The notes beneath the pieces were generated by a model that was not told where the DNA came from, searched no databases, and worked only from the letters and a program-made list of their open reading frames with translations. A DNA stretch of 32,366 bases from Candidatus Scatovivens sp. Its GTDB lineage: Bacteria > Bacillota > Clostridia > TANB77 > CAG-508. Shown piece after piece: positions 17,502 through 25,985 of this stretch (position 1 is the first letter of the stretch; every line of letters begins with the position of its first letter). Location: assembly GCA_045630665.1 (NCBI GenBank), contig JAZQTI010000035.1:1-32366 (forward strand). The letters are read 5' to 3'. A program made the translations under genes and the position numbers.

Positions 17502-18554
17502 TTAATATTGTTGATAAATGTTTCTATTTACTCTGCTTATACATTCTTTTACTCTTTTTTGTAATATTGGTATCATTTCTTTATGTTTTAATTGCCCTAT
17601 TAGTTGTAACTGATGACCTATATGACACCACGCACTAGCGTCCCAATAACTATTTCTAACCATTGACACACTATTTGTTGTATTAGTTCTATTCCATACA
17701 TAACAAACTTCTTTTATATTAATTACTTTATCTAAATCATCTATTTGGTCTGCTTGTCTATAACTCCAAACTCTATCTTCCATAAGTGTATCTTCGCAAA
17801 AATAAACAATTTTACTTTTTTTGATAACTCTAGCCCAAGCAGTACACCATACTTTATTATCACTTAAAAAGAAATCTTCATAATTACTATATTGATGAAA
17901 TTTTGTCATAAACACACCATTTTTGTCTATAAGCTCCATTCCTAGCAATGCCATGTCGTGTCCATATAAACGATTATTTATAGTTTCCAATACTTTATTA
18001 TCTTTCCACCAATCATCACTATCTAAAAAAGCAAAATAGTCAAATTCTAAATTGTTTAAAGCATAATCTATACCAACATTTCTGCTTCCACCATTATACC
18101 TTTTTCTTTTATTTTCTATTAAATGGATTCTTTTATCTTTCTTTTGATATTCCTTTGCAGTTTCAACTGATGTGTCAGTAGAGCAATCATCAACTATTAT
18201 CAATTCAAAATCTTTATAAGTTTGATTCAATATACTTTCAATACAATTTCTAAAAAATGATTTACCTTTATAATCACCACGATCATTATTACAATTTGGA
18301 ACTATTATTGCAAATTTATAATTTATTTTATCAGGTAATTTATCAAAATCTTTTTCATTTATATTAGATTTTTTTAAACAGTCAACTTCATAATTAGTTA
18401 AATTTATATCTACAAATTTACAATTTTTATAATAAATACAATGTAATCCTGTCTTTAATAAATCTTTATAGTTTTCATCATCAAACAAATATATATAATC
18501 ATTATTATTTTGCTTAACTACGCTTATACTATTTTTATCAACTGCTATTTTCAT
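17502..18554 (-). CDS. Glycosyltransferase family 2
   Basis: IIVP..N, CIESILNQTYKDFELIIVDDCSTD, SRNVGI, FLDSDD (DXD), ED. Likely start is ATG 18554. Confidence 0.92.
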   Translation of the reverse strand: MKIAVDKNSISVVKQNNNDYIYLFDDENYKDLLKTGLHCIYYKNCKFVDINLTNYEVDCLKKSNINEKDFDKLPDKINYKFAIIVPNCNNDRGDYKGKSFFRNCIESILNQTYKDFELIIVDDCSTDTSVETAKEYQKKDKRIHLIENKRKRYNGGSRNVGIDYALNNLEFDYFAFLDSDDWWKDNKVLETINNRLYGHDMALLGMELIDKNGVFMTKFHQYSNYEDFFLSDNKVWCTAWARVIKKSKIVYFCEDTLMEDRVWSYRQADQIDDLDKVINIKEVCYVWNRTNTTNSVSMVRNSYWDASAWCHIGHQLQLIGQLKHKEMIPILQKRVKECISRVNRNIYQQY

Positions 18555-18571
18555 ATTTATCACCTAAATTA

Positions 18572-18612
18572 ATTATACCATATCAAACAAAAAAGGACAA
18601 ATCGTGTCCTTT
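18572..18612 (-). promoter_or_regulatory. Terminator plus SigA promoter in front of GT2
   Basis: Hairpin AAGGACA/TGTCCTT-T-run overlaps TTGTCC-17 bp-TATAAT with extended TG. Confidence 0.65.
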
Positions 18613-18970
18613 AATCAATTTTCCAAATATATTCAATTTTTTTATCAGTGCAATCCCACGTGTCTATAATATATCCATTAACACACGCTGTTATATGATT
18701 ATTAGTAGTTATTAAATATTTTCCAATAGGGTGATTTTCTGCAAATTCACCTATATATGTTTCAATATATGGAATTCTTTTAAATTTATTATCTAAAAAA
18801 CCCCTTACAAAAACAGCGTTGTCCATCATTTGACCTTGTTCCATTGCACTTTTACATATTTCTCTATATGCTTCTTTCCAAGTTATATCCATTACTATCG
18901 AATATGCCCTAGGAAAGCAGTCATCAATAAAATTATTATGACTATTTGCATTGTAGTAAAAATATCGCAT
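18611..18970 (-). CDS. Hypothetical protein, possible Cys-His-Asp peptidase-like fold
   Basis: DC..RA, HITAC and DTWD motifs; last gene of the accessory operon. Confidence 0.6.
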   Translation of the reverse strand: MRYFYYNANSHNNFIDDCFPRAYSIVMDITWKEAYREICKSAMEQGQMMDNAVFVRGFLDNKFKRIPYIETYIGEFAENHPIGKYLITTNNHITACVNGYIIDTWDCTDKKIEYIWKID

Positions 18971-18971
18971 A

Positions 18972-19445
18972 TTATCTCATACTTCTTTGTAATGTTTCAT
19001 TAAGCATTTGTTTCTTTTGTGGTGTATCTGCTTCCTCATGTAAGAAATCTAAATATTCTCCTAATGCTTTTGCCATGAAATGAAATGCTTTATCAGATTC
19101 TTCTCCTGCTCCGTATCTTTCTCTTGATTCCATATATCTACCATATTCGTTAGACATTCTGTCCATGTAATCATCACCACGATATCTCATATCACGTCCT
19201 CTAGCACCATAGTTTCCTCTGCCATAGTTTCCATAATCCCCATAGTTATCACGCCCATAGCTATCATATCCAGGACGTCTTGCACCATAGTTTCCATAAT
19301 TTCCGTAATTCATATTTTCTTCCTCCTTTGCTATATGATTTATTTTAGTTAGTTTATACAAATGATCTAGATTGTTGGTAGTTATACCTTCGTCTAGTAT
19401 CTTATTTATACTTTCTTCGGTTTTCTTTTCTAACTTCTCGTGCAT
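18972..19445 (-). CDS. Hypothetical protein with central YG/RG low-complexity repeats
   Basis: YGNYGNYGARRPGYDSYGRDNYGDYGNYGRGNYGARGR between helical ends; RBS AAGGAGG. Confidence 0.85.
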   Translation of the reverse strand: MHEKLEKKTEESINKILDEGITTNNLDHLYKLTKINHIAKEEENMNYGNYGNYGARRPGYDSYGRDNYGDYGNYGRGNYGARGRDMRYRGDDYMDRMSNEYGRYMESRERYGAGEESDKAFHFMAKALGEYLDFLHEEADTPQKKQMLNETLQRSMR

Positions 19446-19447
19446 TG

Positions 19448-19627
19448 TTATTCCTCCTTTCTTAAAAGGGTTAATATTTCATCATTTTGCTTGATTATCT
19501 TTTCTAAATAATTACTATCTTGCTTTTGTAACTCTTGCATTAAATCCCTGTTGTTATAGTCTTGTAATAATAAAATAACGCTATACAATTGCAAGATTAA
19601 TGATGTCATATCTAAATTATTTCTCAT
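19448..19627 (-). CDS. Hypothetical 59-aa protein (not in ORF track)
   Basis: MRNNLDMTSLILQLYSVILLLQDYNNRDLMQELQKQDSNYLEKIIKQNDEILTLLRKEE; the start overlaps the upstream stop (TAATG). Confidence 0.75.
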   Translation of the reverse strand: MRNNLDMTSLILQLYSVILLLQDYNNRDLMQELQKQDSNYLEKIIKQNDEILTLLRKEE

Positions 19628-20088
19628 TAAATTCTTGAAATACTAAATGTAGCATTAGTTATAATTGCTTGTGTAGTTGCTATTGGTGTTGTAGGGTCAG
19701 TTGGTGTAGGTACACTTGGAACACTTTGAACTGATATATTAGTAGTTCCACGAGGGCATACTCTTAATTTCTTATCAAATGAAATAGTTTCATAATCATC
19801 GGCAGCTGCAATAGTTACGGCTCTAACTGTATCAGGTATTAGCACTCCATCTTGGAATAGCCCTATTGCTACTACACCAGCAGTCGCAGTACTCACTGAA
19901 GCACTAAATTCTACATCATAATAACCTGTGTATCCATTTCCAAATATTTTAAAATTAGGATTACCATTTGAATAATCTAACCAACCACAACAAGATGCAC
20001 ATCTAGTTCTAACAGTTGTTTCATCAAAAGTTATTGGACTTGCATTACTTGGTAATGCTAATGGTTCATTTATAATTGTTTCTATCAT
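19627..20088 (-). CDS. Beta-sandwich protein, BclA-CTD/C1q-like
   Basis: ITFD, GYYDVEFSASV, VAIGLFQDG..IP, NATFSISRI; Cys cluster CASCCG. True start is ATG 20088 (RBS GAAAGGAG), not 20214. Confidence 0.65.
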   Translation of the reverse strand: MIETIINEPLALPSNASPITFDETTVRTRCASCCGWLDYSNGNPNFKIFGNGYTGYYDVEFSASVSTATAGVVAIGLFQDGVLIPDTVRAVTIAAADDYETISFDKKLRVCPRGTTNISVQSVPSVPTPTDPTTPIATTQAIITNATFSISRI

Positions 20089-20146
20089 TTTTGTTTCTCC
20101 TTTCAATAATTTTGCACAATATTTTAAATATTTTGTGCATTTTTTA

Positions 20147-20179
20147 AAATAAAAGAGAATAGAACTATGCCTATTCTCT
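20147..20179 (-). terminator. Intrinsic terminator after the Gly/Cys-rich gene
   Basis: AGAGAATAG/CTATTCTCT stem followed by TTTATTTT. Confidence 0.7.
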
Positions 20180-20254
20180 ATGCTACCGACATTTGTGTCG
20201 GTACCTGTTAGCAAGTTCTCGTATTCGAGTTAGTTGTATTCAACTTCTATGCTA

Positions 20255-21133
20255 TTAAATAAATTGACTTGTTGTGTTAAATCCACATCCACATCCATTA
20301 TTTCCAGGGCATGTGAAAATTCTTTGATTTCCATAGACTGGTATTGTATTTATTGGGCATGTGGCTAGGCGATTATACAAAGCGTCAACTTCATTGTTTA
20401 ACCCTTGTGCAATAAATGCGTTTTGTGCAGTTTGTGAAGCTTTTAAATCAGCCATTTCAAGTTGTCTTTGTAAATCAGCAATCTTTTCGTTTTTAGCATC
20501 AATTTTGTCATTGCATAATTGGTCTAAAATACGTTGAGTGTTAGCAGTTTGGTTGATTAATACATCTTTTAAACCATCAGCTAATGCTGCTCTATCAGCA
20601 CAATTTTCGCTTAAGATAGTGCTGTTTAAATTAGCAATACCTAAACGATTTTCACAGCAACAGTCAGCGAATTGTCTACTTAATGCAAATGTGTCTTGCA
20701 TTTGGTTCATAGCTCTATTATTAGCGCTTATTTCGCTATTATAGAAGCCATTTGAAATTGCACTTGTTATGTCGCTTGTGCTATTACATATTTGGTTAGA
20801 TAATCCATAAATGCCATCTCTAGCACCTTCTAATTGGTTAGATAAATGTAATGTGTCAAATCCGTTGTTAGTGTTAGTCATAATGTCTTTTTGACCATTT
20901 GAAAGCCAAGCATATCCATTATCAAAACTATTATTACCAAAGAAACCACCATTGCCATTATTTCCCCAACCACCGAATAATGCTAATAATAAGATTACCC
21001 AAATAAAGTCGCTTCCATAACCACCAAAACCATTACCATATCCACCCATCATCATTGGGTATACTGGATAAGCATTGTTATTAGTTGCTAGGTCAACAGT
21101 TGGAACTATTCCTGAGTTTCCGTTCATTTTCAT
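20255..21133 (-). CDS. Gly-rich, one-TM, CCC-motif coiled-coil protein of unknown function
   Basis: GGYGNGFGG-FIWVILLLALFGGWG, ADCCCENR, ILDQLCNDKI coiled coil, C-terminal GCGCG. Start is 21133 or 21127. Confidence 0.85.
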   Translation of the reverse strand: MKMNGNSGIVPTVDLATNNNAYPVYPMMMGGYGNGFGGYGSDFIWVILLLALFGGWGNNGNGGFFGNNSFDNGYAWLSNGQKDIMTNTNNGFDTLHLSNQLEGARDGIYGLSNQICNSTSDITSAISNGFYNSEISANNRAMNQMQDTFALSRQFADCCCENRLGIANLNSTILSENCADRAALADGLKDVLINQTANTQRILDQLCNDKIDAKNEKIADLQRQLEMADLKASQTAQNAFIAQGLNNEVDALYNRLATCPINTIPVYGNQRIFTCPGNNGCGCGFNTTSQFI

Positions 21134-21219
21134 ATCTCCTTTCTATATATTTAAGGTGCTAGAAGCCTTATAGGAAGATATCATTTCTAGCATAATACCC
21201 TCCTATAAAGCTTTTAACT

Positions 21220-21465
21220 TTATTTTTGAGTATTTTGCTTGTTAAACATTCCCATCATTTGTTCCCATTGTTGTCTTTGTTGTGGGTTAAAACCATTTAT
21301 TGTTTCATTTAATAAATCATTTGGGTTGTTATTCTTTCTTGCCTCTTGATATTTTTTGAAAGCCTGTGGATTTTGTGCTTTCAATTGTTTCTCTAATTGG
21401 TTCATCATATTTTGTGGTATTTGTTGTATTTTGTTCTGCATTAACATTTGGATCATTTGCATCAT
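21220..21465 (-). CDS. Small Q/N/M-rich helical protein
   Basis: NPQ...NP repeats; RBS AAAGGA. Confidence 0.75.
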   Translation of the reverse strand: MMQMIQMLMQNKIQQIPQNMMNQLEKQLKAQNPQAFKKYQEARKNNNPNDLLNETINGFNPQQRQQWEQMMGMFNKQNTQK

Positions 21466-21850
21466 TTTTAATCATTCCTTTCAATTCTTCTATTTGCGTT
21501 TGTAAATATTCAATTTGTAAATCTTTTGCGTCTTTTGGTATTATTTCACTTAATTCGTAAGTTTTTATTTCACCTTTTGTATTTTTAATCCATACTACTG
21601 ACATATCTTTGCTAAAATATGGTGTATCACCAACAACCATGTCTCTTTGTACTTCATCAATTGAATTTGCGTATTTTATTACATCACGATTAGTAGGTGC
21701 TAATTGAAAATTTTGTGTTAAGTTGGTAGGTTGTTGTACAGGTGGTTGTTGCATTTGATTTCTCATTTTTTCTAGTTCTGCAATTTGGTTATTTATTCTA
21801 TCTATATTAACTTGTGCATTATATGGATTCATAAATTGATTGTTATACAT
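21329..21850 (-). CDS. Hypothetical protein, Q/P/N-rich N-terminus
   Basis: RBS AGGAGG; globular-looking core PYFSKDMSVVWIKNTKGEIKTY. Confidence 0.8.
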   Translation of the reverse strand: MYNNQFMNPYNAQVNIDRINNQIAELEKMRNQMQQPPVQQPTNLTQNFQLAPTNRDVIKYANSIDEVQRDMVVGDTPYFSKDMSVVWIKNTKGEIKTYELSEIIPKDAKDLQIEYLQTQIEELKGMIKNDANDPNVNAEQNTTNTTKYDEPIRETIESTKSTGFQKISRGKKE

Positions 21851-21865
21851 ATTAGTTCCTCCTAA

Positions 21866-21946
21866 TTAAATAAAAAGAAGGAGTGCATATAGATATCGCA
21901 TTTTTTTGCTAACAATTGGCTCATTGCCTTCTTGTAATTTTTCCAT
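21866..21946 (-). CDS. Putative leader peptide (26 aa)
   Basis: MEKLQEGNEPIVSKKMRYLYALLLFI; RBS AGAAGGAGG. Confidence 0.55.
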   Translation of the reverse strand: MEKLQEGNEPIVSKKMRYLYALLLFI

Positions 21947-22008
21947 CTATATTCCTCCTTCTACTTACTAATTTACTATCCTTTAAAGATACAAAATGAT
22001 ACAACCAC

Positions 22009-22035
22009 AAAAAAAGAACTCTAATTGAGTTCTTT
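22009..22035 (-). terminator. Terminator at the end of the AgrB-like gene
   Basis: AAAGAACTC-AATTA-GAGTTCTTT followed by TTTT. Confidence 0.75.
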
Positions 22036-23232
22036 AATTTTATTATTTATTCTATCTTTTATCTTTTTAATACCTGCTTCAGTATAGTTGTATTTAATAC
22101 TTAAACTTATAGCATTTTTCTTTTTAACAAAATATTCATAACATATTTTGTATTTTATACTATCTTTATCAACTACTTTTAAAATTGTTTCTTCAAACAA
22201 TTCTTCAGGCATTCCTCTATAAAGTGGTTTATACGCTTTCTTTACTAATTTAGATGTAATATAAGATAAACCGACACCTAGCATAATTGGAATGAATATA
22301 CTTATTCCTAATGGAGTAGTAATTCTATTTAAAGTGTAGTAGGTTAAGTTTGAAACAATAAAACATTGTGCCATGCTAGATAAGTGAAATGCTTTGCCGA
22401 ATGTTCGTTTGGTTAGCCAAAATGAAGTTAGTATAAATAAGCATTCTATCAAAGTGTGATTTAATTTTGCTACAAGTAAAATTAACACAACACTTAAAGT
22501 ATTCCAAATTAGACTTAATATAAAATAAATAATATAAGTTAATTTTGTAATTTTATCTAATTTTCTAAAATTACGCAATTTTTCTTGCAATTTTGTTAGC
22601 AATTTCTTTAAGTTTATCTTCTTTAGCAAATAAGAAAATGCTTCCTCCACCTGGTAACATATTTCTCCTCCTCTCAAAAAATACAATTTATATAATATAA
22701 TAATCATAATTAGAAAATCTAAGTTCATTAATAATGATATTGAAAAATTATAACCATTTGAATTTAAACTTTGACTTCTAACTATCATTGATATAAATTG
22801 ACAAAATACTATAAATAAAGTTAATTTCGTAAACTTCTTAATTTGTATTTTTTTAGTTTTAATAAAGTATATTATAATAGTTAATATATAGTCGCTAAAT
22901 ATATGCATTAAAGGATTATTTATTATTGTTTTTAAATATTGAAATATTACTATTAATGGAAACCACATAAAAGTATACAATTTTATTTCTTTATCATTTT
23001 TATTGCACATTATAGAAATGACAATATAAAAATTAATAAAACAATTAATATAAGAAATGATAATGTCTAATTTAAAAACTTTACAAAAATCATTAATTTG
23101 CAAAATTGTAGGATTATTAATATCCAAACCAAAATAATCTAATCCTACTATCTTCATTATAAACACACATACTAATACAAAAAGATACACTCTTAAACTT
23201 GCCGACAAATATTTGTCATAATCTTTAAACAT
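22021..23232 (-). CDS. Polytopic membrane protein: sensor-like TM domain + AgrB-like protease domain + C-terminal HTH
   Basis: About 6 N-terminal TM segments; KRTFGKAFHLSSMAQCFIVS (R-x6-H-x6-C); C-terminal YEYFVKKKNAISLSIKYNYTEAGIKKIKDRI (sigma-4-like HTH). Start is ATG 23232 with RBS GAGGAGGTGA. Confidence 0.75.
   Translation of the reverse strand: MFKDYDKYLSASLRVYLFVLVCVFIMKIVGLDYFGLDINNPTILQINDFCKVFKLDIIISYINCFINFYIVISIMCNKNDKEIKLYTFMWFPLIVIFQYLKTIINNPLMHIFSDYILTIIIYFIKTKKIQIKKFTKLTLFIVFCQFISMIVRSQSLNSNGYNFSISLLMNLDFLIMIIILYKLYFLRGGEICYQVEEAFSYLLKKINLKKLLTKLQEKLRNFRKLDKITKLTYIIYFILSLIWNTLSVVLILLVAKLNHTLIECLFILTSFWLTKRTFGKAFHLSSMAQCFIVSNLTYYTLNRITTPLGISIFIPIMLGVGLSYITSKLVKKAYKPLYRGMPEELFEETILKVVDKDSIKYKICYEYFVKKKNAISLSIKYNYTEAGIKKIKDRINNKIKELN
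22571..22660 (-). CDS. Nested AgrD-like propeptide (29 aa), out of frame inside the AgrB-like gene
   Basis: MLPGGGSIFLFAKEDKLKEIANKIARKIA*; RBS AGGAGG 6 nt before ATG. Confidence 0.55.
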   Translation of the reverse strand: MLPGGGSIFLFAKEDKLKEIANKIARKIA

Positions 23233-23299
23233 TTTTCTCACCTCCTCAATAAAATGAAAAAAGATACCTCGCTAGTATCTTTTTCCACCCCTTGTATTA

Positions 23300-23328
23300 A
23301 TTATACATTTTTAATTTGTACAAGTCAA
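23300..23328 (-). promoter_or_regulatory. SigA promoter of the AgrB-like gene
   Basis: TTGACT (23323-23328)-17 bp-TATAAT (23300-23305). Confidence 0.7.
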
Positions 23329-23661
23329 TTATTTTAATATATCAGTTTTGCTTATTTCCCATTGTTCCATCTTTTTTGCAATTGTATGTATGTATGAGTT
23401 TCCTCCAAGTGATTCATATACCCCTAACATATCCAAAAAATTTTGATAAACATAATCGGGGATAGCTTTAAGTTCATTGTAAACAAAATATGTATTAGTT
23501 AATTGACTTTTTAATAAAGTTTGCAATGCTACATTTTGCAATTTTTCGTTTGAAGTTTTATCTTCAAGTTTCTTTTTGTAATGTTTAATACGACCAACAC
23601 AATAAGTTAAAATACTACCTACAACAAAACTTATTGCCGTATTAATTATTGTTTGTGTCAT
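23329..23661 (-). CDS. Single-TM holin-like/lysis-associated protein
   Basis: N-terminal TM segment; LLKSQL...Y..LGGN motif of a phage family usually found near lysis genes; RBS AGGAGG. Confidence 0.55.
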   Translation of the reverse strand: MTQTIINTAISFVVGSILTYCVGRIKHYKKKLEDKTSNEKLQNVALQTLLKSQLTNTYFVYNELKAIPDYVYQNFLDMLGVYESLGGNSYIHTIAKKMEQWEISKTDILK

Positions 23662-25087: not shown

Positions 25088-25565
25088 GATACACGACCGA
25101 AGTCGTAGTATCTCTGGTCTAAAGACATCATTGTCGAACCATTAAACCAGTGCTATTTTATAAGCACTGTACCAAATTCAAGTATATTCATCTTTCCAAC
25201 TAGTATTGTATACTTGTAATTCAGTACACTACCTATAAAAGATAGTGATAAAATAAATAGACTAATCACATTACTCGTTATACCTTCAACATTCTAAGCA
25301 CCACTGTATAACAATACGGTAGGAAGGTGGCTTTCTTCCTCGTGATATTTACCATTTTCACTATTTATTTTAGTTACCAAATAGATATTTACTAGCACCA
25401 CTAGATACACTAGGCATTGGGTTTTATATCTCCATATCTATTTGCATTAATTAATAGTGCCTATTATAAGCACCATTGAATAGATATTTTCGCCTAACTC
25501 CAAATGAAGTGCATTTTACAAGGGCTTATTGTAATATATCTACTCAATGCTGATTATAAATCAGC
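25088..25565 (-). ncRNA. Candidate large structured non-coding RNA
   Basis: About ten abutting stems, a C(UUCG)G hairpin, and mismatches that resolve as G-U only on the minus strand; no ORF of 60 aa or more in the track. Confidence 0.6.
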
Positions 25566-25896
25566 CTCTATTTTTTAATTGTTCTTTATATGTTGCCCAT
25601 CTTAAATTAGAAACATTATTATTTATCTTATTTCTATCAATATGGTCAACTGTTGGTTTGTTTTCAGGATTATCAATAAACAATTCTGCAACCAATCTAT
25701 GTATAGCATAATATTTAACCTTACCATTATTATATAAAGGTAATCTATAATAGCCTTTATTTGATAGTGTTGGCTTTTTAATGGTTTCTACACATTTTCT
25801 TTTTTGCATCATTCTTGATAAACTTTTAACTCTACCAAGATTACTTACTTGATATAACCCCTCATAATTTGGTATGTCTTTCCATACTTCTTCCAT
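25561..25896 (-). CDS. NUMOD4-HNH endonuclease
   Basis: EVWKDIPNYEGLYQVSNLGRVKS; IHRLVA..FI.NP...VDHIDRNKINNNVSNLRW. Start is ATG 25896. Confidence 0.9.
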   Translation of the reverse strand: MEEVWKDIPNYEGLYQVSNLGRVKSLSRMMQKRKCVETIKKPTLSNKGYYRLPLYNNGKVKYYAIHRLVAELFIDNPENKPTVDHIDRNKINNNVSNLRWATYKEQLKNRG

Positions 25897-25899
25897 ACA

Positions 25900-25985
25900 T
25901 AACACCTCCCGAATAAGTGTTAAGGGAAGTAATTCGGGTACTTCCCCACAATTTAATTATATCACTTCTTTTTCTTTTTTGTCAA
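25900..25985 (-). promoter_or_regulatory. Promoter and two-hairpin leader of the HNH gene
   Basis: TTGACA-18 bp-TATAAT with extended TG; two hairpins with complementary 7-nt loops. Confidence 0.7.

Follow-up and report, generated by a model that had tools for sequence, protein, structure and literature searches.

The locus described here raises the question of whether one phage-encoded membrane protein can join an Agr-type catalytic domain to a DNA-binding output and, if so, what such a protein would control. The window analyzed, i.e. the whole stretch of 32,366 nucleotides (nt), is one entire contig of phage DNA from a Candidatus Scatovivens sp. assembly (1.51 Mb in 146 contigs, 72% complete). 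The protein of interest, referred to below as X, is a 403-amino-acid (aa) fusion encoded at 22021-23232 on the minus strand, as is every gene of the window; the window genes and regulatory features described below are all on this strand. An earlier reading made from the sequence alone (the sequence-only reading) had proposed that X collapses peptide maturation, sensing and transcriptional output into a single polypeptide composed of a sensor-type membrane domain, an AgrB protease motif and a helix-turn-helix (HTH) domain, giving a kinase-free phage communication system. The open reading frame (ORF) of ~403 aa proved to be real, with the minus-strand location as a point absent from that reading, and the order of membrane domain, AgrB-like His/Cys domain and HTH in one polypeptide was borne out by profiles and by an AlphaFold2 model. 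As to its function, we lean by a narrow measure towards X being a one-component transcription regulator anchored in the membrane, with AgrB-type Cys/His chemistry as its gate and the next operon under its control.

An AgrB-like domain and a sigma region-4-type domain in one membrane protein

In the ORF list the X gene is given as 22021..23241 (406 aa from a GTG). The ATG at 23232 is preceded by a GAGGAGG ribosome-binding site (RBS) and is most likely the real start of the coding sequence (22021..23232), which ends in a TAG stop codon at 22023-22021; the whole-assembly profile match covers 22024-23232. The resulting 403-aa protein is identical to the database protein P0001. In the AlphaFold2 model, built on 43 relatives (mean pLDDT 82.6, pTM 0.75), X opens with six long helices (residues 5-186), which a basic linker (187-226) joins to a second group of four, also long (227-333); a short coil bearing the motif LYRGM then leads into a small helical C-terminal domain (343-401, four helices). 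Ten membrane helices and a soluble tail are predicted in total, and by loop charge and helix count the N-terminus, the linker, the loop carrying His283 and the C-terminal domain would all be cytoplasmic.

The Pfam AgrB model (PF04647) matched X with 30.3 bits against a cut-off of 23 (E 3.4e-7) at residues 213-324 in the 406-aa numbering, i.e. residues 210-321 of the 403-aa protein. This AgrB-like domain, which includes the four helices at 227-333 and corresponds to the first two thirds of AgrB, is encoded at 22234..22605. The same model matched 35 of the 43 aligned family members at E <= 0.01. This was further confirmed by a profile-profile comparison with 19 canonical AgrB ORFs taken from genomes of the same class, in which hhalign gave a probability of 96.9% and an E of 1.3e-10 over 103 columns, and in the reverse direction the hidden Markov model (HMM) of the family recovered canonical AgrBs. 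Canonical AgrBs score 100-150 bits on PF04647 as compared with 30 for X. Judged from these sequence comparisons, the AgrB homology of X is beyond chance.

An R-x6-H-x6-C motif had been placed at 22363-22407 in the sequence-only reading. The motif quoted there is at residues 275-294. R276, H283 and C290 do map to 22407-22363, within a catalytic-type motif that comprises K275, R276, G279, H283 and C290 (22363..22410), and the His and Cys are widely conserved in the family. Specifically, H283-x6-C290 is kept in at least 90% of the 43 relatives, which are 20-79% identical to X, and among a further 19 distant members the Cys is kept in at least 90% and the His, by reading of the alignment, in most. 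The Arg did not hold up in the same way: R276 has the R-x6-H spacing but varies among relatives, and it is K275 that is invariant, along with H283 and C290, in 15 closer relatives (G279 being kept in at least 90% of these). When the family was aligned by hhalign with canonical AgrBs, its His and Cys coincided with those of the canonical enzymes, and K275 fell on their Arg with a shift of one residue. According to the available text of PMC10196373, proteolysis by AgrB needs R70, G75, H77 and C84; X resembles this arrangement in that a basic residue and a Gly precede a His and a Cys spaced by seven residues, on what would be the cytoplasmic side.

A complete AgrB enzyme is not what X contains. 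The homology covers positions 3-108 of the 185 of the Pfam profile and residues 23-127 of the 199 of canonical AgrB, i.e. the first four helices. The C-terminal third of AgrB, which includes the K129-131 loop and, in the canonical set, an APVDHPNKP-like motif and the last two helices, is missing from X, in which the HTH follows the fourth helix instead. As reported in the accessible part of PMC10196373, AgrB mutants at K129-131 retain peptidase activity and do not form the autoinducing peptide (AIP). Since the AgrB homology ends at about residue 127 of 199 and K129-131 is tied to AIP formation, X retains the cleavage-linked part of AgrB without the peptide-formation part. X further differs from AgrB in the six-helix domain added in front and in that no agrD gene follows it in the phage.

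The C-terminal tail, described in the sequence-only reading as HTH-like, was typed by its fold and by reciprocal profile matches as a sigma-70 region-4-type HTH (residues 342-403; 22024..22209). In VIA-align these residues superposed on region 4 of SigF, SigA, BldN, sigma-28, SigR, SigB and others with Z values of 6-8 and a root-mean-square deviation (rmsd) of 2.1-2.9 over 57-60 residues, and in Foldseek the HTH of KorA was matched with a probability of 0.99-1.0. The family profile, at positions 340-405, matched the C-termini of ORFs of mostly 250-290 aa in many of 399 reference genomes of the class, and all six of the matched ORFs that were checked were sigma factors with Sigma70_r2, r3 and r4. 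Reciprocally, Sigma70_r4 (PF04545) matched 3 of the 43 family members at E <= 0.01, and the relative P0251 gave 24.0 bits with this model against a cut-off of 24.1, together with weak DUF1492 and ArpU matches. Nothing resembling sigma regions 2 or 3 was found in residues 1-340, and X is therefore not a sigma factor. The ArpU, RinA and DUF1492 families are phage late-gene regulators built on region 4, and X has the same HTH fold. It differs from sigma-70 in being without regions 2 and 3, in the tethering of region 4 to a ten-helix membrane domain, and in its proposed target, which would be a pair of tandem repeats and not a single -35 element.

The last membrane helix is joined to the HTH by a conserved tether, LYRGM (residues 337-341; 22210..22224), of which L337, Y338 and G340 are invariant in 15 sequences and which reads LYRGM as a consensus in the alignments. 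By inference it is a candidate cleavage or docking site. The tether was also considered as an AgrD tail in cis, with which it shares a hydrophobic-Pro-x-x-Leu look; it is without P-x-x-P, which the available text of PMC3901668 gives as the AgrB-binding mark of AgrD, and this idea was rejected and kept only as a lead.

The N-terminal six-helix membrane domain (residues 1-186; 22675..23232) had been regarded as sensor-type, and here no similarity to AgrC was detectable. A comparison with the membrane domains of eight AgrC-like kinases gave an hhalign probability of 0.45%, and an HMM of the N-domain matched no kinase ORF in hmmsearch, nulls at the sequence level that are compatible with a shared fold, as AgrC-type sensor domains diverge fast. 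No Pfam family matched the N-domain, no score >0.85 was obtained in the ESM Atlas, and hhalign showed no similarity to AgrB or to the second membrane domain of X itself; its origin as a duplicated AgrB domain was rejected at an hhalign probability of <1%. Some polar residues within its helices are conserved: D172 in all of the 43 sequences, G30 and Q145 in at least 90%. The Lys/Arg-rich linker that follows, predicted to be cytoplasmic (residues 187-226; 22555..22674), is modelled with low confidence at 192-200. The AgrB-like domain reached block-mean pLDDT values of ~78-93 in the full-length model and 61.6 (pTM 0.33) when folded alone; this points to packing between the two membrane domains, with the reservation that different alignments went into the two runs.

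When X was compared with the Protein Data Bank (PDB) by Foldseek and VIA-align, only the HTH was matched and the membrane parts gave nothing, and searches of the PDB by sequence and by profile returned nothing meaningful. That X has a membrane fold without a solved relative is a weak statement, because the AgrB-like domain alone was modelled poorly and was not used as a search query; as of PMC10196373, according to its available text, there was no experimental structure of AgrB. NCBIfam gave no match for X, and PHROGs only one weak family of no known function.

If the His/Cys site were a relic, X would be merely a membrane protein, serving for example in superinfection exclusion, and its HTH-like tail would be non-regulatory. 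A weak SieB match in one of the 43 family members and in P0245 points in this direction, but the retention of His and Cys by at least 90% of sequences even where identity falls to 20%, the co-variation of the HTH with the repeats described below and the conserved cassette structure of the gene argue against it, and we find this explanation barely credible.

A gene cassette and its proposed DNA target

The X gene is preceded by a sigma-70-type promoter (TTGACT-17 nt-TATAAT; 23300..23328) that agrees with the consensus at 11/12 positions, and 17 of 31 loci have a promoter of at least 11/12 in the 150 nt that precede the gene. An intrinsic terminator lies over the stop codon (22013..22035), and a terminator-like hairpin is present at the stop codon of the X gene in all 35 loci examined. 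With a promoter and a terminator of its own, the gene forms a self-contained cassette. It has the features of a phage moron, in that this transcription unit lies within a late operon and is of deviant composition, the GC content being 0.22 at 22001-23000 and 0.30-0.34 at 19001-22000.

A further element, recognized by reading of the sequence, is a hairpin with a T-run located between the X promoter and the RBS (23257..23285), which by its look is either a terminator or a 5' stem-loop. It begins within about 15 nt downstream of the strong X promoter (23257-23328 for the two together). A promoter of at least 10/12 followed by a hairpin and T-run ahead of the RBS recurs in 19 of 31 loci, including chromosomal ones, with stems of different sequence. 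This hairpin may attenuate transcription or stabilize the message.

Just after the terminator are two direct TTGTAT repeats with a 10-bp period (21989..22004), the only exact match of this repeat pair in the window and the place where the HTH is proposed to bind. A survey of the 60 nt behind the stop codon took in 35 loci, of which 23 are genome contigs, 11 are viral contigs and one is the window itself. In 26 of the 35, a 7-mer recurred at period 10 with at least 6/7 matches (12 of them perfect), as compared with 23 of 297 control windows placed after other ORFs of the same loci, and periods of 8, 9, 11 and 12 reached at least 6/7 in only 1-5 of the 35 loci. The repeats accompany the gene in phages and chromosomes alike, regardless of whether a phage protein, a kinase, a response regulator or a small peptide is encoded downstream. 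Their sequence varies by clade together with the recognition helix of the HTH, as shown by the pairing of TTGTAT with GIRKIKDRIN-type helices, of TAGTATC with GIRKILKVVNKK and of TTGTC with RSIQRIK. In one instance, the repeats are TTTTTAC in L004 and TTGTATT, with a different helix, in L016, though the leader ORF is identical in both. The region 21950-22010, named as a regulatory target in the sequence-only reading, fits these conserved tandem repeats. A -10-like hexamer, TAAATT (21970..21975), is found 13 nt after the second repeat, and the best -10-like hexamer is at this distance in 17 of 31 loci.

The leader of the next operon (21866..21969) consists of a long hairpin with a T-run just before the RBS of the gene at 21329-21850, and contains a 26-codon small ORF (21866-21946). 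The fold of the leader RNA has an energy of -32 kcal/mol and a z of -5.07, related loci have stems of different sequence, and no Rfam family was found in 21700-23500. Of 19 phage loci, 12 have a small leader ORF (15-26 codons) that extends across the hairpin, and in the other 7 it is missing. In the leader hairpins of the window and of L001-L027, the 5' arm carries a Shine-Dalgarno-like AGAAGGAGG, and the 3' arm and T-run lie ahead of the next RBS. The leader ORFs always end in Leu-Leu-Leu-Phe-type codons laid over the terminator arm, and the leader looks like translation-coupled attenuation. The 26-codon ORF was also considered as an AgrD and rejected: such ORFs are missing in 7 of the 19 loci and have no conserved nucleophile and no tail, their end being dictated by the terminator arm.

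The order of promoter, short leader ending in an intrinsic terminator and operon in the phage loci could also be accounted for if the region-4-like domain acted on RNA polymerase itself, either by being loaded at the repeats and reading through the leader terminator like lambda Q or by competing with the host sigma for the beta-flap. The sigma region 4 fold would be in keeping with such a role, as would a weak Phage_antitermQ match (E 0.05) in the relative P0181. This match is, however, far under the cut-off, chromosomal loci such as L021 and L028 carry the repeats with, by reading, no leader hairpin before the next gene, and a membrane tether is ill-suited to a factor that travels with polymerase unless it is released. 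We therefore regard this explanation as highly improbable.

In the preferred reading of X as a membrane-anchored regulator, the HTH would bind the tandem repeats. These would take up about -41 to -26 in a promoter with a -10-like element and no proper -35, the place where an activator replacing -35 recognition would sit. Binding would turn on the next transcription unit, i.e. the accessory block from 21850 down to ~17500, by way of the leader with its terminator hairpin, and the His/Cys site would gate this output of the HTH. Two modes of gating can be envisaged. In the first, the LYRGM tether would be cleaved and the HTH of ~65 residues freed, as AgrB frees the C-terminal tail of AgrD; self-cleavage of the tether fits the predicted topology, the retained cleavage half of AgrB and the conserved LYRGM. 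In the second, X would act on or bind a peptide substrate, a mode that fits the agr neighborhoods and the peptides of L035-L037 described below, with no candidate substrate found in the phage. The six-helix N-domain would pack on the AgrB-like helices and may set the conditions for gating. X would travel as a cassette together with its own DNA target.

Several points weigh against this regulator model. The binding of the HTH to the repeats is deduced from position and co-variation only, the loci are related, so that the repeat and co-variation counts overstate independence, and 9 of the 35 loci are below 6/7 for the repeat, with no repeat seen by reading in L032-L034. The TAAATT of the window, at 13 nt, fits 4/6 positions, and the scan preferred another hexamer at 8 nt. 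For the HTH, Sigma70_r4 (PF04545) gives no match on X even at E <= 10, and Z values of 6-8 are in the middling range by the scale of VIA-align (<8). Self-cleavage by X is pure inference drawn by analogy, and the tether, with P-x5-P in the window, is without the P-x-x-P present in all 10 canonical AgrD ORFs extracted. In addition, the conserved hairpin and T-run upstream of the RBS of X are left unexplained by the model.

A more far-reaching version, which we hold to be unlikely, is that the AgrB core would serve as a self-cutting gate responding to a membrane or peptide cue and freeing the region-4 domain for the promoter behind the gene, that rumen phages would use it to time the accessory block, possibly by reading host Agr peptides, and that in some bacteria it would have become part of the agr loci. 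If such a self-cleaving gate were true, it would provide a kinase-free route from membrane to DNA.

Relation to Agr signaling

The description of the system as kinase-free in the sequence-only reading was consistent with the window contig, where no AgrC-type kinase domain (PF14501) and no LytTR domain (PF04397) was found, general kinase and receiver models not having been applied to every window ORF. On other contigs of the same assembly, three HATPase_c_5 matches and one LytTR match were found. The description did not extend to several bacterial relatives. In L021, L022, L028 and L031 the next gene encodes a short AgrC-type HATPase_c_5 kinase of 237-297 aa with, by reading, 1-3 hydrophobic segments, and in L026 the next gene encodes a REC+LytTR regulator. 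In L029 (5338-9453) and L030 (5114-9434), the X gene lies between genes for an AgrA-like REC+LytTR regulator and a multi-helix AgrC-like HATPase_c_5 kinase, and a canonical agrB (115 and 121 bits, respectively) and an agrD ORF on the opposite strand converge on the kinase gene; to judge by their predicted gene content, these two are complete agr-type loci with the fusion gene as an extra member. The kinases, regulators and agrBD genes next to X in bacteria indicate that the family has real Agr ties and is not inherently kinase-free.

These neighborhoods, among them L029 and L030 with their AgrA-like, AgrC-like, agrB and agrD genes, would also be expected if X were an accessory of host Agr signaling, in which the AgrB-like pocket would bind or acylate the host AgrD or an AIP intermediate and the HTH would adjust neighboring agr (or phage) genes; a phage would in this way be able to read the Agr peptides of its host. 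The adjacent kinases and REC+LytTR regulator in the other five loci and the presence of canonical AgrB in 55 of the 150 genomes sampled from the same class are in line with this. On the other side, no canonical AgrB was found in the assembly of the window, which is only 72% complete, and 15 of the 35 loci were counted as having neither the phage block nor, within the DNA available, an agr gene close by. An accessory role of this kind seems to us quite unlikely.

A different neighborhood was found in L035-L037, which were identified by tblastn and are 28-36% identical to X. Here the X gene is followed, in this order, by TTGTC-type repeats, a conserved ORF of 32-34 codons (L035:7332-7436, L036:4779-4877 and L037:6650-6748) and a gene for an XRE-type HTH protein. 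The encoded peptides share an invariant Gly-Ser, four hydrophobic residues (e.g. SFIIF), a Gly-Pro and an amphipathic basic tail, and it is possible that they are peptide substrates or signals. A complex prediction for the AgrB-like domain of the L035 relative (residues 220-352) with the 34-residue peptide scored 0.01 against a mark of 0.32, which is no evidence either way.

The peptides of L035-L037 also bear on the proposal of the sequence-only reading in its full form, i.e. that X is a complete kinase-free communication device whose N-domain would sense a peptide, whose AgrB part would mature it and whose HTH would give the output. The AgrB homology, the conserved His/Cys pair and the HTH are all real, the contig is without AgrC-type or LytTR domains, and the Ser and four hydrophobic residues of the L035-L037 ORF resemble the core of a five-residue AIP ring. 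These peptides are, however, without P-x-x-P, and no AgrD-like precursor ORF, defined by a Cys/Ser ring and a P-x-x-P tail pattern, was found in the window; across all phage loci the same pattern found nothing, and it recovered only the canonical AgrDs of L029 and L030. The leader ORFs of the phage loci, missing in 7 of 19, have no conserved Cys or Ser, and since they stop exactly at a hydrophobic C-terminus they offer no tail for cleavage. The absence of the C-terminal third of AgrB, with the K129-131 loop that the accessible part of PMC10196373 links to AIP formation, the lack of resemblance of the N-domain to AgrC sensors and the kinases and regulators adjoining relatives of X further argue against such a device. 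With no AgrD-like peptide in the phage, a complete kinase-free phage communication system is not supported, and we consider this proposal decidedly improbable.

Among known systems, the agr3 cassette of the Clostridioides difficile phage phiCDHM1 is similar to the X locus in that, according to the available text of PMC3901668, an Agr-derived gene is borne by a phage of a low-GC Gram-positive host, the phage is without a response regulator and the GC of the cassette is below that of the neighboring modules. It differs in having separate agrD, agrB (197 aa) and agrC genes (PMC3901668), in place of which the X phage has a single truncated AgrB-like domain fused to an HTH, with neither agrD nor an AgrC-type kinase found.

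ToxR, CadC and BcrR are membrane-bound one-component regulators, and pro-sigma-K and BlaR1-BlaI are membrane-tethered factors freed by proteolysis. The likeness of X to these lies in its proposed working only, with a DNA-binding domain joined to a membrane sensor or protease and no kinase, and there is no sequence relationship; compared with pro-sigma-K and BlaR1-BlaI, the protease-like part of X is AgrB-type and in the same chain as the HTH, and cleavage in X is a proposal. In the fsr system of Enterococcus faecalis (FsrB/FsrD), an AgrB homologue has a C-terminal extension read as an in-frame substrate. That extension is a pheromone precursor, whereas the extension of X is a folded HTH.

To our knowledge, AgrB is known only as an AIP-making enzyme. 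X is best described as an AgrB-derived membrane protein that has probably turned regulator and is both conserved and mobile. It places the AgrB catalytic core and a DNA-binding domain in one chain, and its gene brings the probable DNA target along. Should the HTH be under the control of the His/Cys site, X would represent a new kind of one-component membrane signaling in Gram-positive bacteria and their phages and, after phiCDHM1, a second case of phages using Agr parts. The compact cassette of promoter, gene, terminator and operator-promoter makes this idea directly testable with a reporter. Full-text searches turned up no paper that describes a fusion of AgrB with an HTH.

Spread of the family and phage setting

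The fusion is conserved in relatives, as shown by 956 proteins that matched X at E <= 1e-3 among 8000 scored candidates, with P0001 as the top match. The best 120 of these 956 are 394-433 aa long and cover 99-100% of the query at 55-100% identity, many of them being encoded on contigs of 20-48 kb. An exhaustive HMMER search of 50% clusters gave 189 clusters at E <= 1e-3, 97 at E <= 1e-10 and 40 at E <= 1e-30. An assembly artefact, named in the sequence-only reading as a possible cause of the fusion, was rejected, since the same architecture is present in hundreds of proteins. The family is large in gut and rumen metagenomes, and of the 399 reference genomes of the class, the assembly of the window itself was the only one to yield full-length X. 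In the phage collection searched, there was no match to X by DNA or protein. BFVD contained one full-length relative of 429 aa (E 6.8e-9, TM 0.62) under the automatic name "Accessory gene regulator B".

Some family members are short forms that consist of the AgrB-like domain and the HTH. Eight of these were read; they are 187-212 aa long, and six carry H-x6-C. The short forms P0282 and P0287 come from contigs of 40-43 kb. In a search for more loci of distant clades and short forms, none was found in viral contigs and one truncated locus was found in metagenome contigs. At least ten other clusters (P0144, P0297-P0306) are 116-118 aa long and start at an internal Met that precedes the catalytic Cys by two residues. 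Broken or truncated copies are the probable source of these gene calls, although such uniformity in length is odd.

In the window, the X gene has the minor head protein gene on one side and the genes for the scaffold and major head proteins on the other. Genes for the small terminase, large terminase, portal and minor head protein extend from 30788 down to 26436, and those for a scaffold-like protein and the major head protein from 16979 down to 15522. An HNH endonuclease is encoded at 25561-25905, and the remaining genes include tail-region genes, an amidase and a GIY-YIG nuclease. At the left contig end, 68 nt (12-79) are 76% identical to 25825-25892 within the HNH gene and may be a second HNH copy cut by the contig end. 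Directly upstream of X is a gene for a 110-aa protein (23329-23661; phrog_4105) with one N-terminal hydrophobic helix, which recurs upstream of the fusion gene in L007, L010, L011, L013, L024 and L027.

The DNA downstream of X is occupied by a conserved accessory block between the head-assembly genes (17502-21850). It begins with a Gln/Asn-rich 173-aa protein (21329-21850), and further contains an 81-aa ORF (21220-21465), a Gly/Asn/Cys-rich 292-aa protein with one hydrophobic segment (phrog_16490), a protein of 153-195 aa with a CxxCC motif (phrog_20016), a 59-aa protein, a repeat-bearing Gly/Tyr/Arg-rich protein of 157 aa and a 119-aa protein with a Cys...His pattern like that of a small cysteine peptidase (phrog_3754). 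The next gene after the block in the window encodes a family-2 glycosyltransferase, the only product of the block region with a known function. The block was found downstream of X in all 12 viral loci that have downstream DNA and in 8 of 23 genome-contig loci. The remaining 15 of the 23 are without the phage block, and several of these lie among housekeeping genes (cold-shock, ribosome-hibernation and SecA), as identified by reading of the translations and not by family tests.

The ORFs at 21220-21465 and 21329-21850, which are in different frames and share 137 bases, are each conserved in related loci. This overlap may reflect a programmed frameshift or a nested gene.

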